From Promethearchaeota archaeon (GTDB lineage Archaea; Asgardarchaeota; Lokiarchaeia; Sigyniarchaeales; SOKP01), in NCBI GenBank assembly GCA_016839745.1, contig JAEOTS010000122.1, positions 11,977 through 75,976 on the forward strand: 64,000 nt of DNA, read 5' to 3'. Numbering within the stretch: the stretch's first letter is position 1; each line of letters begins with the position of its first letter. Position numbers and translations under genes: made by a program. The notes below the pieces were generated by a model that worked only from the letters and a program-made list of their open reading frames with translations, ran no database searches and was not told where the DNA came from. This document shows positions 5,432 to 11,992 of the stretch, piece after piece.

Positions 5432-5812
5432 TTATTTGGCTAATGCATTTCGAGCTCTTTTTATGTCATCAACTCCAATAACTAACTTATTATGTTCAGC
5501 TTGATAGATTAGGTCAATATTAACACCAACATTGCCTATTTTACGGGCCATCTTCCCACCAGATCCGGGTTTTCCTGCAATATGACCAATATCCATGACA
5601 AGCACCTCACGTACAGCACTTACTTTAAAACCTGCTGATTCGAGTACATACTGAGCAACAGTTTCATCTTGAACCAAAATATGAATGACACCTTCATCAT
5701 TAAGAGGAATTCCACATAAACCTTCCATATTTATCCCATTTTTGCCTAGAATCTCTCCCATATCAGCTAGTGCTCCCGGTCTATTTTCCAAAATAACAGC
5801 TATATCTTTCAT
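5432..5812 (-). CDS. Tandem ACT-domain (amino-acid-binding) protein
   Basis: LENRPGALA..LGKNGINM and GKPGSG..IGNVGVNIDLIY form two ACT repeats. Confidence 0.8.
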   Translation of the reverse strand: MKDIAVILENRPGALADMGEILGKNGINMEGLCGIPLNDEGVIHILVQDETVAQYVLESAGFKVSAVREVLVMDIGHIAGKPGSGGKMARKIGNVGVNIDLIYQAEHNKLVIGVDDIKRARNALAK

Positions 5813-6027: not shown

Positions 6028-7923
6028 TCATTTTGAAATATCAAGTGTAAATAAGACTTCTCCATACTCTACAGATTTTGACTTCATAGGATATCCACTG
6101 TTATTAAGAATATAGAGCATGGGTTTGTTTTCAAGAAGAATTGATCCGGTAAAATATTTGTAATTAAGTTCTCTAGCTATTGTAATTAAGTAATCAAGTA
6201 GAAATTTAGCTATTCCCGTTTTGCGAAAATTTTTCTTAACAACTATGCCTAATTCAACAGTTGATGGTTGATGTGTTTTAAAAAATGCTGCTGAAGCAAC
6301 TATTTTCTGTTCACCTTCTTCAAGAGATTCTCCTACCAAAATCATGTCAGTTTGATAATCTATGTTAACTAAGGGTTGTACAAACTTATGAGGAAATTTG
6401 CGATCATGTGAGAAGAATCTCAAATATCTATCATCTTCATCTAATGAGTAATAAAGTCCTTGCAGTAATCGTTCATCAGTAGCTTTGATAGGTCTAATTT
6501 TAAGCATTTTGCCATTTTTCATTTGATAATTCGTCTCATATTTATCAGGGTATAAGCTGACCCTACCATTTATAGAAAGTGGTAATTTCTGATCTGAATA
6601 AACATAATTTATTTTTTTCGCATATTCTAAAAGTTCTTCTCTAAAATCCGGATGAGCAATATTTATCATTTGTAATACTCTTTCACGTATACTTTTTCCA
6701 AAAAGATAAGCAATTCCCCATTCAGTAACAACATAATGAATATCACCCCTTGTTATAACTACTCCCGAGCCTGGTTGAAGATACGGAACAATTCTCGAAA
6801 CAGTTGTACCATCTTTAAGTGTTGCAGTGCTAGGGAGGACTGCTATAGGTTTTCCGTCTTCAGAGCGATTGGCACCTCTGACAAAATCTACTTGCCCACC
6901 TATACCACTATAAAATAATGATCCAAGCGAGTCAGCATTAATCTGTCCCGTTAAATCAATTGTAAGCGCCGCGTTAATAGCCACTTGCTTTTTGTTTCTG
7001 CTAATTATATAAGGATCGTTGCAATAATTACAGGGATGAAATTCGACAAAGGGATTGTTATCTACAAAGTTATAAAGCCTTCTGGAGCCCATGACAAAAG
7101 AACAAATTATTTTACCTTTATGAAGTGTTTTTTTTTTACATGTTATTACTCCCTTTTCTACGAGATCAACAATTCCATCCGAGAAAACTTCACTATGCAC
7201 TCCTAAATCTTTTTTATCTTCTAATTCGACTGATAATGCATTAGGAATATTCCCAATTCCCATTTGAATCGTAGATTCGTCTTCAATAAGGGATGCGACA
7301 TATTTTGCAATCTTTTTAATGGATTCATCTGGGGGATCGTAAGTAAACTCAATAATATCGTGATCTGATATAATATAAGCATCTATATCATTCATGTGAA
7401 TGAATGAATTACCCAGTGTGCGCGGCATCTTAGGATTAACTTCCGCAACCACATATTCAGCTGCCTCTGCTATAGGTTTAGCTATATCAACGTTAATACC
7501 ATAACTACAAAATCCAAAATCATCGGGAGGACTTACCTGAATTAATGCTGTCTTTAAGTGCATTTGTCCCCGTTCAAAAAATTTTGGGATGTCTGAAAGT
7601 AGCATTGGAGTGTAATCTGCTAAACCCCCTTTCACAGCGCCTCGAAGATTTTCACTAATAAAAAAAACATTGTGCCGAAATAAATCTTCTTTACCTCCAG
7701 CTGATTTATAATAATCCAGATCGGAAAGACTTATAAAATGTATCATCTCTACGTCAGTAAGCTGAGGACCGAGTTCAATAAGTTTTGAAGTGAGTTCGAT
7801 TGGTTCAGCACAACCTGAATCAATAAAAACTCGGTCGCCAGGTTTGATATATCTCTTGATTGCATCTTCTATATTTACATGTTTCTGTTTATATTTTTTA
7901 ATATTACTCAAATCATTTGTCAT
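6028..7923 (-). CDS. Acetyl-CoA hydrolase/4-hydroxybutyrate CoA-transferase fused to a C-terminal GNAT acetyltransferase
   Basis: QMGIG, HSE, SGIGGQVDF and VVTEWGIA in the CoA-transferase part; IRPI..DE, YLRFF and FRKTGIA (acetyl-CoA-binding motif A) in a Pat-like GNAT part. Confidence 0.88.
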   Translation of the reverse strand: MTNDLSNIKKYKQKHVNIEDAIKRYIKPGDRVFIDSGCAEPIELTSKLIELGPQLTDVEMIHFISLSDLDYYKSAGGKEDLFRHNVFFISENLRGAVKGGLADYTPMLLSDIPKFFERGQMHLKTALIQVSPPDDFGFCSYGINVDIAKPIAEAAEYVVAEVNPKMPRTLGNSFIHMNDIDAYIISDHDIIEFTYDPPDESIKKIAKYVASLIEDESTIQMGIGNIPNALSVELEDKKDLGVHSEVFSDGIVDLVEKGVITCKKKTLHKGKIICSFVMGSRRLYNFVDNNPFVEFHPCNYCNDPYIISRNKKQVAINAALTIDLTGQINADSLGSLFYSGIGGQVDFVRGANRSEDGKPIAVLPSTATLKDGTTVSRIVPYLQPGSGVVITRGDIHYVVTEWGIAYLFGKSIRERVLQMINIAHPDFREELLEYAKKINYVYSDQKLPLSINGRVSLYPDKYETNYQMKNGKMLKIRPIKATDERLLQGLYYSLDEDDRYLRFFSHDRKFPHKFVQPLVNIDYQTDMILVGESLEEGEQKIVASAAFFKTHQPSTVELGIVVKKNFRKTGIAKFLLDYLITIARELNYKYFTGSILLENKPMLYILNNSGYPMKSKSVEYGEVLFTLDISK

Positions 7924-7955: not shown

Positions 7956-8711
7956 TTAATTTACATTCATCATTTCTTTTACTCTCTCAACGATAGGAGG
8001 AATTATTTCTCCAATCGCTTCAAAGAACCTCAAGTCAGCTTCATCATCGTACGGAGTTTCACCCTGATTTAAAATGATTAATTTTGCACCATTTCTCCAA
8101 GCATACCCCGGCATATTTGCCGCAGGAGTCACAACGAGAGAAGAACCAATTACAAAAAAAACATCAGAACTTTGAGATCGTCTTATAGATTCTTCAAGTT
8201 CGTCTATCGGTAAAGGATCGCCAAAATTAACAATACTTGAGATAAGTCTTCCTTCACAATTTGGACAATTTGGTTGGTTTTTGCGAATTCTACCAGTTCT
8301 GTATCCCTGTCCCAATTTCTTTTTATCCCATCCTGCTTCCTCAAATGTTAGTTTCTTTCCACAAGCTAAACACTTCATGAAATACATGTTGCCATGTAGT
8401 TCAGCTAATTTTTCAAATGGAATTCCCGATTTTGCGTGAAGTCCATCCACATTCTGAGATATGAGGTAATCTAATTTACCCAATTTTAATAATTCTACAA
8501 TTTCATAATGACCTTGATTTGGTTTAACTTGATCCCATGGAGGTGATTTTGGGGGTGGCAATCCAGCATCACGCCTTGTCCACACACCATCAGGACCTCT
8601 GAAGTCTGGTAATCCACTCTCTGTCGAAATTCCCGCACCTGTGAATATAACAAGGCGATTAGACTCGAAAATCCATTTTGCTGCTAATTCAATTTTATCT
8701 TCCAATTCCAT
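7956..8711 (-). CDS. Sir2-family NAD-dependent protein deacylase, class IV (SIRT6/7)-like
   Basis: [22 protein letters not shown], ELHGN, CxxC...CxxC zinc site, GSSL. Confidence 0.92.
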   Translation of the reverse strand: [251 protein letters not shown]

Positions 8712-9324: not shown

Positions 9325-10074
9325 TTATTTATTTAAGTAAGTAATTCTTTTAAATTCTAAAGACGCTATTAGAGCTTCAAGATTTTCTCCTAATTTGTAA
9401 AATTCTATCATTTTTTGTGGACTTTCAATATCATTCAAACTTGAAATGTGGTGAGAATCACAACCAATTGATACTTTAATATATTTCTCTTTCAATTTGT
9501 TAAAGAAGATATCATATTTCGGAGAGTAAAATTGTGGATAACTTGAATTGAACTCCACGATAACATCGTATTCTTTTAGGAATTCTAATAATACATCCAA
9601 ACCCCTAGTAATAAAAAATGAAGGATCGAAATGAGCAAGTCCTATTAGAGGAAAATCACTATTATATTTCTTCTTCCAAAAATTTAGAATCTTCTTAACG
9701 AAAGCTATTCCTTCAAAACTTTCGAGGTATTCGAATAAAATAAAATCATACTTGTTTGGAACTATATTGTTAATTATAAACTTCTCAGAACTACTTAAAT
9801 CTATCTCTATTCCCTTAAAAAGGGTCAATTTTTTATTTTCATTAACAAGAAAATCTTTACACCTTGATAAATCTTCTAAATATCTCTTAATTTTATCAAT
9901 ATTGTTAAGATTAGGGATATGATCGGCTTTCCATGAATCTGTAAAATGATCTGTAATGCAAATATAATCTAAATCCTTTTTCAGCGCACTATTTACAATT
10001 TCCTCTATGGAATTTCTTCCATCTGAATATTTTGAGTGGATATGTAAATTTAATTTAGGAGATTCTATTTTCAT
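9325..10074 (-). CDS. PHP-domain phosphoesterase
   Basis: HIHSKYSDG, ITDH, GIEID, LAH and GCDSH metal-binding motifs. Confidence 0.88.
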   Translation of the reverse strand: MKIESPKLNLHIHSKYSDGRNSIEEIVNSALKKDLDYICITDHFTDSWKADHIPNLNNIDKIKRYLEDLSRCKDFLVNENKKLTLFKGIEIDLSSSEKFIINNIVPNKYDFILFEYLESFEGIAFVKKILNFWKKKYNSDFPLIGLAHFDPSFFITRGLDVLLEFLKEYDVIVEFNSSYPQFYSPKYDIFFNKLKEKYIKVSIGCDSHHISSLNDIESPQKMIEFYKLGENLEALIASLEFKRITYLNK

Positions 10075-10120: not shown

Positions 10121-11992
10121 CTAAATCCCTAGTGATTTTATTTCTTTATTGCGAAACCAAGATAAAATTCCGAAAATGAAGAGAATTATTCCAAAAATAA
10201 AAAGTACTGAAGTAAAAAGAGTTGTCCCTGCGAAACCTGGGATGTTCGTAATAGATGTACCGATATTAATAAATATATCCTGTATCGAGACGAAATTATT
10301 TACGAACATAAACACTATACTAAAAATAACAACTCCCGAGATAAATAGCAAAACATCTATTATCAGATTTATAGTATGGATTAATTTAGATTTTTTTTTT
10401 CCTAAATCAATGATCTGAGCATTCCCGATATTAATTGCGACCCTCTCTTTATCAACAAACTTAACAAAATAATACGCTAACTCTCTCAGAGGCAATAAAT
10501 CGAGAATAACTGTTATAACTGTAAACACACACACTATAATTAAAACTCGATTTATTATTACTAAATCAGGGTTAACATCTGAAAAATTATTTATCGCCCA
10601 TATAAAGAGCCCTATTATAATAGAAAAGAAGAATTTAATACCGGTTAGTGTCAAATTTATTGAGGGTTTATCAGTTATGGCTAACAAGTGATAGGTAAAG
10701 CCAATTACTAATATTATCAGTCCTAAAACTAAAGCTGGGATTGAAATTATAATACCTAGTATCACAGCAAAAACTAAAAAACAAATAAAAATAAAAATTG
10801 GTAAAAAAGGAAAGAAAGGCGCCTTAAACGGGCGATCTAACTCCTTTCTCTTTCGTCTTAATTTTACAGCAGCGTAATTTACAAAAGCAAGAGCAAAAAA
10901 GTATATGAAATTAGTAATTTCAGCTGTTAATCCAATTCCCGCAAAAATTGTGAATAGTAGAACTAAAATAACAGAAATAATTAAACCCAAAACAGGTAGA
11001 TCTGATTTTGTTTTAGTCTCTCTAATTTTTTCATGAACAAATCGATCTCTTGCTAAAGCAGTAATTACAGCTACTGCTGAACCCAATGCTGCATTTATAG
11101 CGATTAACGTTGAAATAATAGCAGCAAAAACCATAAAATAGAAACCAAATGTTCCAATAACGCTTTCAAATACATCAGCTAATAATACGGGATTATCACT
11201 TAAATCAGCGGGATTTCCTCCTATAACTAATAAAACTACAAAAGTAATTGATAAATATATAACTAATGTTATAATTATCGCATATATAATTGTTTTAGGG
11301 ATGTTCTTTGAAGGGTTTTTTAATTCGGGGTTTAAATAAGCTATGTTTGAAGTTATTGAGGTAAAAAAAATAAATAATAATAAAAAGCCCGGAATAACCC
11401 CCTCAAATTTAATTGGAGGAAGAAAAAAATTAGGATTTGTGAATGGTGAGATTAATAATCCAGAAATAATAAAGAACGCAAATAAGCAAATTAATATGAA
11501 GGTTAGCAATAATAACGCTTTGATAGCAATTTTTTGCGTCCTGAAAATTATAATGCTTGTAAAAAGTACAGGCAAGATAGATATAATTGTTACTATTATA
11601 TCTGAAATTGGAAGGTTAAATTTAGTAAAAACTTCATTAAACACAGATGCAAATATTTGTGCCGAAAATGAACATGTTGCGATATTTGCTATCCATAAAA
11701 AGAAACCAATTATAAAAGCTAAGAATCCACCAAGACCCTCTTTGCTAAAATTATAAGCACCTCCAGCAATTGGAAGACTTGTAGAGAGTTCAGCATAATT
11801 TAATCCCGTAAAAAAAATTAATATCCCCCCTAAAAGGAGACTTAATAATAAACCCGATCCGGCATATTCAATACCTAATCCTAACAATATGAATATGGAA
11901 CCACCTATTCCACATCCTATACCATATATTATCCCTTGAGATAACTTCAGTGTCCTTTCTTGTACAACTTCTTTGGGTTTTATCTCATTCAA
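10121..11992 (-). CDS. APC-family amino acid permease with extra C-terminal TM helices
   Basis: GIGGSIF, YAELSTSLPIAGGAY, ELKNPSKNIPK, RPFKAPFFP. Confidence 0.88.
   Translation of the reverse strand: MNEIKPKEVVQERTLKLSQGIIYGIGCGIGGSIFILLGLGIEYAGSGLLLSLLLGGILIFFTGLNYAELSTSLPIAGGAYNFSKEGLGGFLAFIIGFFLWIANIATCSFSAQIFASVFNEVFTKFNLPISDIIVTIISILPVLFTSIIIFRTQKIAIKALLLLTFILICLFAFFIISGLLISPFTNPNFFLPPIKFEGVIPGFLLLFIFFTSITSNIAYLNPELKNPSKNIPKTIIYAIIITLVIYLSITFVVLLVIGGNPADLSDNPVLLADVFESVIGTFGFYFMVFAAIISTLIAINAALGSAVAVITALARDRFVHEKIRETKTKSDLPVLGLIISVILVLLFTIFAGIGLTAEITNFIYFFALAFVNYAAVKLRRKRKELDRPFKAPFFPFLPIFIFICFLVFAVILGIIISIPALVLGLIILVIGFTYHLLAITDKPSINLTLTGIKFFFSIIIGLFIWAINNFSDVNPDLVIINRVLIIVCVFTVITVILDLLPLRELAYYFVKFVDKERVAINIGNAQIIDLGKKKSKLIHTINLIIDVLLFISGVVIFSIVFMFVNNFVSIQDIFINIGTSITNIPGFAGTTLFTSVLFIFGIILFIFGILSWFRNKEIKSLGI

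Follow-up and report, generated by a model that had tools for sequence, protein, structure and literature searches.

A compact SIRT6-like sirtuin of a Promethearchaeota archaeon and its short-loop relatives in Asgard archaea, bacteria and eukaryotes

SIRT6 and SIRT7 are chromatin sirtuins linked to genome stability and ageing, and their class, class IV, is to our knowledge still commonly described as restricted to eukaryotes. A prokaryotic lineage of the same compact build bears on the origin of the eukaryotic histone-deacetylation toolkit. Such a protein had been predicted, from the sequence alone, for a gene at 7956..8711 on the minus strand of a 64,000-nucleotide stretch of a Promethearchaeota archaeon genome (GenBank:JAEOTS010000122.1, positions 11,977 to 75,976; hereafter the window). 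The locus thus raises the questions of whether its product is related to class IV sirtuins, where similar proteins occur and how they are related by descent, and which reaction the protein would catalyze.

The sirtuin gene and its reduced helical module

The ORF list and translation gave an open frame with an ATG start, 251 aa and a stop codon. The product, designated P0001, consists of the catalytic core alone, with neither an N- nor a C-terminal extension, and it matched Pfam SIR2 (PF02146) with an E-value of 2.6e-33 (115.9 bits; cut-off, 24). The NCBIfam CobB-type models (NF040867/PRK00481) matched P0001 below their cut-offs, the best of them in two stretches with 201.4 bits versus the 320 required. 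Base composition around the gene was ordinary for this genome, and a promoter/terminator scan, in which a bacterial consensus was applied to the DNA of an archaeon, found no sites above shuffled controls.

The catalytic, NAD and zinc motifs were all complete in P0001, and their columns were invariant or nearly so in two alignments, one with 18 and one with 42 relatives. The Rossmann-fold NAD-binding motif GAGIS (residues 25-29; 8625..8639, minus strand), in which G25, G27 and S29 were invariant in the 42-sequence alignment, aligned onto the same motif in SIRT6. The catalytic block QNVDGLH...LAELHGN (residues 86-108; 8388..8456, minus strand) contained the invariant residues N87, D89, H92, H106 and G107; Asn87 and Asp89 are predicted to bind NAD/nicotinamide ribose and His106 is the predicted catalytic His, while Q86 was invariant in the 18-relative alignment and nearly so in the 42-sequence alignment. 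A zinc-binding module, Cys114-x2-Cys117 ... Cys149-x2-Cys152 (8256..8372, minus strand), had all four Cys residues invariant in both alignments. Between the two Cys pairs lies a 20-residue insert that is common to part of the prokaryotic short-loop sirtuins, its W-D...G-x-G-Y-R-T pattern being present also in P0122, P0131, P0136 and LoSIR2b (see below).

Residues 35-68 (8508..8609, minus strand) form a reduced helical module, in which the PDFR segment is followed by a Pro-rich loop, with 17 residues between residue 45 and KPNQGH (from residue 63). Pfam SIR2 matched P0001 in two pieces and skipped profile positions 25-57; for the remaining two sirtuins of the genome, the match was a single piece over profile positions 1-180. 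Direct alignment revealed that canonical sirtuins carry ~18 more residues at the position of the P0001 loop. The distance from PDFR to QNxD, which is 51 residues in P0001 and 51-52 in eukaryotic SIRT6-type rows, stayed within 49-52 when the Asgard orthologs and the bacterial set described below were included, as against 67-70 in canonical prokaryotic sirtuins. An AlphaFold2 model of P0001, based on the 42-sequence alignment (mean pLDDT 94.7, pTM 0.90), contained a single short helix (residues 43-48) in this segment. The split Pfam match, the alignment, the loop spacing and the model thus bear out the original prediction that the helical segment is absent, and the motif strings quoted there were all found as written in the translation of 7956..8711.

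Comparison with PDB sequences (phmmer) ranked human SIRT6 first (E = 2.9e-49), with P0001 residues 2-243 on SIRT6 29-268 and no gap across the loop (SIRT6 61-95). Lower ranks were taken by Sir2Af2 (1.2e-41), Sir2Tm (1.3e-38) and SIRT7 (5.8e-27), and SIRT1-3 and SIRT5 were far below SIRT6 (SIRT5, SIRT3 and SIRT1 at 1e-16 to 1e-21). The two paralogs of the same genome served as an internal control; their top PDB ranks went to Sir2Af2 (4.6e-67) and Sir2Tm (2.7e-49), and SIRT6 scored no better than about 1e-27. A Foldseek search of the PDB with the P0001 model likewise placed human SIRT6 chains at the top (TM 0.85, rmsd 2.6 Å, 37% identity), compared with a TM of 0.67-0.74 for Sir2Af2 and Sir2Tm. 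The resemblance to SIRT6 that had been put forward therefore stands, SIRT6 being the best solved relative both by sequence and by predicted fold. The loop shortening and the likeness of P0001 to SIRT6 are no chance resemblance.

The class U/III sirtuins Sir2Af2, Sir2Tm and CobB share with P0001 the fold, the chemistry, a size of ~250 aa, the stand-alone build and the CxxC...CxxC arrangement, but unlike P0001 they keep the full helical module. In human SIRT6 (class IV; PDB 3pki, 6xv6, 8g57) this module is reduced as in P0001, and the two proteins agree in their N-to-H spacing of 19 and in their motifs. They differ in that P0001 begins at about SIRT6 residue 28 and ends near SIRT6 268-273, the SIRT6 extensions being missing from it; that the insert between the two Cys pairs is longer in P0001; that Lys55 of P0001 takes the place of SIRT6 F82; and that the third and fourth zinc Cys form a CxxC in P0001, whereas 10 residues separate them in SIRT6. 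This last spacer has 8 residues in the eukaryotic row P0247 and 4 in the eukaryotic row P0135.

Distribution of the short-loop form

A search of 5.8 billion proteins showed that many Asgard MAGs, labelled Lokiarchaeota, Promethearchaeota, Hodarchaeota, Hermodarchaeota and Thorarchaeota, encode orthologs 75-92% identical to P0001, and this abundance at such identity indicates purifying selection. Some of the orthologs carried the automatic JGI name 'mono-ADP-ribosyltransferase sirtuin 6'. When 201 genomes of the phylum of the window were scanned, strong matches (full length, E ≤ 1e-60) were present in 62 genomes belonging to 7 of 27 families, at 44-100% identity; in the remaining 20 families sampled, including f7 (43 genomes) and f12 (19 genomes), no strong match was found. 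The weaker matches (38-46%) were considered as possible divergent short-loop forms, an interpretation that was rejected for nine of the ten checked, which proved to be canonical long-loop sirtuins (in families f7, f9, f12, f13 and f15, and as a second copy in f19); the sole short-loop form among the ten was L090 of family f5. The short-loop sirtuin gene is therefore widespread yet patchy across Asgard archaea.

At locus L095 (G199:C181:5960-6890, family f27), the codon for the conserved Trp of GPDGVWT was seen to be an in-frame TAG instead of TGG, in an ortholog whose frame is otherwise intact; the orthologs of genomes G144 and G058 have one TAG each within the match. Recoding was considered for the L095 codon and set aside; either a nonsense mutation or an error of sequencing probably accounts for the TAG in these three orthologs.

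The genome under study encodes three sirtuins, the other two being of the canonical Sir2Af2/Sir2Tm type: paralog 1 at G000:C35:8367-8900 (plus strand; ORF 1414..2199 of L001) and paralog 2 at G000:C82:7689-8222 (minus strand; ORF 1333..2109 of L002). A set of three paralogs has likewise been described for Lokiarchaeum ossiferum.

The compact SIRT6-like form is not confined to Asgard archaea and eukaryotes. Among the species-representative genomes scanned, 16 bacterial loci (L009-L022, L034 and L036) had the short loop and 50-55% identity to P0001. They belong to four phyla, namely Chloroflexota, Acidobacteriota, Actinomycetota and Desulfobacterota, with hosts comprising Dehalococcoidia and other Chloroflexota, Blastocatellia, Pyrinomonadaceae, Actinomycetota including Rubrobacter, and Syntrophaceae and other Deltaproteobacteria. 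Their GC content was 44-70%, compared with 28-36% for the Asgard loci, and several of the bacterial contigs were 0.6-1.8 Mb long, which excludes misbinned archaeal DNA as their source. P0001 is nearer to this bacterial set than to the eukaryotic SIRT6-type proteins (about 36-45%).

Among representatives of 50%-identity clusters, a few prokaryote-like proteins ranked first, followed mostly by long single-stretch matches at 36-45%. Those with names were eukaryotic (vertebrate SIRT6, a lycophyte, a glomeromycete, Mantamonas, Euglena and Anaeramoeba), and three unnamed ones that were checked preferred SIRT6 over SIRT7 in the PDB; the eukaryotic rows within the best 150 representatives were of the SIRT6 type alone, without a true SIRT7. 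Three prokaryotic short-loop sirtuins, P0121 (408 aa), P0128 (537 aa) and P0130 (481 aa), have N-terminal extensions of ~160-290 residues, in which a Pfam search gave no match; P0128 and P0130 fall within the bacterial short-loop clade.

Phylogenetic position and possible origins

A careful maximum-likelihood tree was calculated from 90 rows and 238 columns under LG+C20+F+G4 by PMSF, the rows including 36 eukaryotic SIRT6-type proteins and 17 canonical proteins of class U/III type, the genome's own paralogs among them. In this tree, which like the quick tree below was built without class I, class II, true SIRT7 and LoSIR2b and with the root assumed among the canonical sirtuins, the 17 canonical long-loop rows were split from all short-loop rows with a support of 100/96, and P0001 fell on the short-loop side together with the 36 eukaryotic rows. 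Grouping with class U/III, which would have spoken against the original prediction, did not occur. Within this sampling, P0001 appears to be a prokaryotic protein genuinely related to class IV sirtuins. Its relationship to SIRT6/7 holds for the class IV-type loop, for the fold and for the side of the tree; it does not extend to a place inside the eukaryotic class IV clade, since the eukaryotic rows formed one clade without any prokaryotic row (100/100; stem length, 0.63), as they also did in the quick tree (SH-aLRT 100).

The association of Asgard sirtuins with this class has a precedent, in that Grau-Bové et al. (2022; bioRxiv 10.1101/2021.11.30.470311) report SIRT7 as the well-supported sister of a clade made up of sirtuins from Lokiarchaeota and Heimdallarchaeota. 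In tying an Asgard clade to class IV, that work agrees with the 100/96 split obtained here, but it puts the clade beside SIRT7 specifically, whereas all eukaryotic rows that were checked here prefer SIRT6 and none of our rows is a true SIRT7. We found no mention of a bacterial sister clade in the part of that paper available to us.

The order of branching on the short-loop side was less firmly given. The backbone of the careful tree was a polytomy of the eukaryotic clade, Asgard groups and the bacterial group, in which the bacteria were joined by one of the Asgard rows, a Helarchaeota sequence (88/93). AU tests rejected neither a single Asgard clade (p-AU = 0.465) nor a clade of Asgard plus eukaryotes (p-AU = 0.259). 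The quick tree, with more Asgard rows from seven families, had the form (eukaryotes, (bacteria, Asgard)); its prokaryotic nodes reached SH-aLRT values of 82-90, Asgard archaea being one clade (88) sister to one bacterial clade (82). The original prediction had offered an Asgard relative or ancestor of SIRT6/7; kinship is supported by the 100/96 split, and the polytomy and the AU tests leave the choice between the two undecided. The link specific to eukaryotes and Asgard archaea that it implied was not upheld, as bacteria of four phyla share the compact form. Widespread bacteria as the closest homologs had been named as a sign of recent transfer; this sign is present in part, a bacterial clade at 50-55% identity being found.

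It may tentatively be proposed that the compact Asgard lineage was the direct vertical forerunner of SIRT6/7, acting on tailed histones before eukaryogenesis, and that the bacterial copies stem from one ancient Asgard-to-bacteria transfer. If this is true, class IV would be an Asgard-derived chromatin eraser and not a eukaryotic invention. Our trees neither demonstrate such a descent nor reject it, as the p-AU of 0.259 for Asgard plus eukaryotes indicates. The bacterial clade, the patchiness and the order of the tree nevertheless caution against reading the gene as a simple Asgard-to-eukaryote heirloom, and the same data bear on a different history, in which the compact sirtuin passed by horizontal exchange between Asgard archaea and bacteria of sediments (Dehalococcoidia, Desulfobacterota, Acidobacteriota and Actinomycetota), so that its likeness to SIRT6/7 would be uninformative on an Asgard ancestry of class IV. 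Such exchange would fit the closer identity of P0001 to the bacterial loci than to eukaryotic SIRT6-type proteins, the location of these loci in truly bacterial DNA, the grouping of bacteria with the Helarchaeota sequence, the presence of the gene in only seven of 27 Asgard families, and the position of eukaryotes in the quick tree as sister to bacteria plus Asgard archaea and not within the latter. We nevertheless consider it unlikely: within the seven families the gene tracks the families in the tree, as one Asgard clade with a bacterial sister, the composition of the window around the gene is ordinary, and neither Asgard monophyly nor an Asgard plus eukaryote clade was rejected in the AU tests. 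The single Asgard clade and the AU results require at most one ancient transfer, in either direction.

Predicted activity and gene neighbourhood

P0001 is very probably a functional, stand-alone NAD+-dependent lysine deacylase, most likely a deacetylase, of the short-loop lineage that among prokaryotes comes nearest to eukaryotic class IV. This assignment is based on the intact ORF with its complete motifs, the confident model, the rankings with SIRT6 first, and the assayed protein LoSIR2b (GNAMCCOK_01652) of Candidatus Lokiarchaeum ossiferum B35. Judging from the conserved residues and known sirtuin chemistry, NAD+ would be bound by the Rossmann fold via GAGIS (residues 25-29), Gln86, Asn87 and Asp89, and the acyl-lysine would enter a cleft that has the Rossmann fold on one side and the small zinc module (Cys114/117/149/152) on the other; with His106 as the putative general base, the expected products would be nicotinamide, O-acyl-ADP-ribose and free lysine.

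A July 2026 preprint deals with the three Lokiarchaeum ossiferum sirtuins and gives their sequences in a supplementary table (bioRxiv 10.64898/2026.07.02.735847). According to that study, LoSIR2b had the highest activity of these sirtuins towards acetylated peptides from Loki histone tails, deacetylated yeast H4K16ac as well, was strictly NAD-dependent, and showed robust peptide deacetylation comparable to that of human SIRT1 in a fluorogenic assay; moreover, Loki/Hod SIR2 domains fused to the targeting domain of yeast Sir2 restored silencing in sir2-delta yeast (bioRxiv 10.64898/2026.07.02.735847). LoSIR2b, a member of the 'SIR2b' clade, is compact like P0001, has the catalytic core only and stands alongside two canonical paralogs. 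The two proteins have in common the short loop (...QPNSGH in LoSIR2b), SQNVDGLH, the ELHGN block, the W-D...G-x-GYRT insert (WGNGYRT in LoSIR2b) and CPxCxGRLISSxVNFGDP (CPxCGGRLISSVVNFGDP in LoSIR2b), and they share a Q-to-E spacing of 18 residues, whereas LoSIR2a, LoSIR2c and the paralogs of the genome under study have 16 and a long loop. As judged by eye from the printed sequence, identity between the two was roughly 55-60%, LoSIR2b being longer by ~8 residues at the N terminus and by one in the loop; a search by short motifs did not find LoSIR2b among the proteins compared here. By this inspection P0001 appears to be of the same type as LoSIR2b, although the latter has been assayed in vitro and P0001 is known from its sequence and model.

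The kinship of Asgard sirtuins with class IV (2022) and the deacetylase activity of this type (2026) are thus already published, and P0001 is one more ortholog. What goes beyond the published accounts that we found, in so far as their available parts extend, is the sizeable bacterial clade of compact sirtuins, the occurrence in about a quarter of the Asgard families, and, with the present sampling, the placement of eukaryotes as sister to Asgard archaea plus bacteria and not within the former.

Being apparently of the same type as LoSIR2b, P0001 would by analogy have acetylated lysines on Asgard histone tails as its likeliest substrates, and probably acts on other proteins too; the evidence in the preprint comes from in-vitro peptides and a yeast chimera and does not extend to substrates in living cells. 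The original prediction had also mentioned long-chain acyl groups, and it can be asked whether P0001 is mainly a long-chain fatty-acyl deacylase or a mono-ADP-ribosyltransferase, as SIRT6 is, with deacetylation as a minor activity. Its fold and loop architecture are indeed nearest to SIRT6, the JGI names of some orthologs point to ADP-ribosyl transfer, and, at several positions that we take to line the acyl channel of SIRT6 (PDB 3ZG6), P0001 has the same hydrophobic residue or a conservative substitute (F64 to F37, W71 to W44, F86 to W59, V115 to V88, I185 to I160 and W188 to F163). Most of these conserved hydrophobic positions, however, are general to sirtuins, F82 of SIRT6 has given way to Lys55, and the N-terminal extension of SIRT6 is missing. 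Binding of long acyl chains, moreover, does not discriminate between classes, because the canonical Sir2Af2 binds myristoyl peptides too (PDB 4twj). LoSIR2b is, in addition, a robust peptide deacetylase on a par with SIRT1, while SIRT6 is weak on such peptides. A long-chain deacylase role of P0001 therefore has no specific support, and a protein working mainly in either of these two ways seems quite improbable to us.

A different role is suggested by the genes next to the sirtuin. Downstream, 32 nt away and in the same direction, lies a gene (6028..7923, minus strand) for a 631-aa protein in which an acetyl-CoA hydrolase/transferase (PF02550 + PF13336) is fused to a C-terminal Pat-type GNAT, and beyond it, also co-directional, is the gene of a 126-aa ACT-pair protein (5432..5812, minus strand). 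Pat/CobB pairs are an established bacterial paradigm, and by this model the sirtuin would be the eraser of an acylation switch formed with the fusion and ACT genes, targeting metabolic enzymes rather than histones. In favour of it are the co-direction of the three genes with the short gap between the first two, the matches of the fusion C-terminus to GNAT families and to the mycobacterial Pat model, the ACT pair in the small protein, and the same gene order at loci L085 and L086 (sirtuins 83-89% identical) and in genome G071. However, the sirtuin and the fusion gene are on different contigs in 11 further genomes of this family that carry both of them, four from the same genus being included; at the Asgard loci L005-L008 and L014 the fusion gene was not within 6 kb of the sirtuin; and each genome has 2-3 paralogs of the fusion gene elsewhere. 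A conserved operon with the fusion and ACT genes was consequently rejected, since adjacency was seen only in the closest relatives (L085, L086 and G071). The limited adjacency and the fusion paralogs make the arrangement look like a recent juxtaposition, and an acylation switch of this kind is an explanation that we regard as having little probability compared with deacetylation of histone tails and probably other proteins.

The fusion gene itself is conserved across the family, and its second copy in the genome under study is at G000:C41:17026-18846. Upstream of the sirtuin, the window contains a gene for a PHP-domain protein (9325..10074, minus strand) and one for a 623-aa amino-acid permease (10121..11992, minus strand); L085 and L086 share the synteny of this PHP/permease block, and L007 does so in part.
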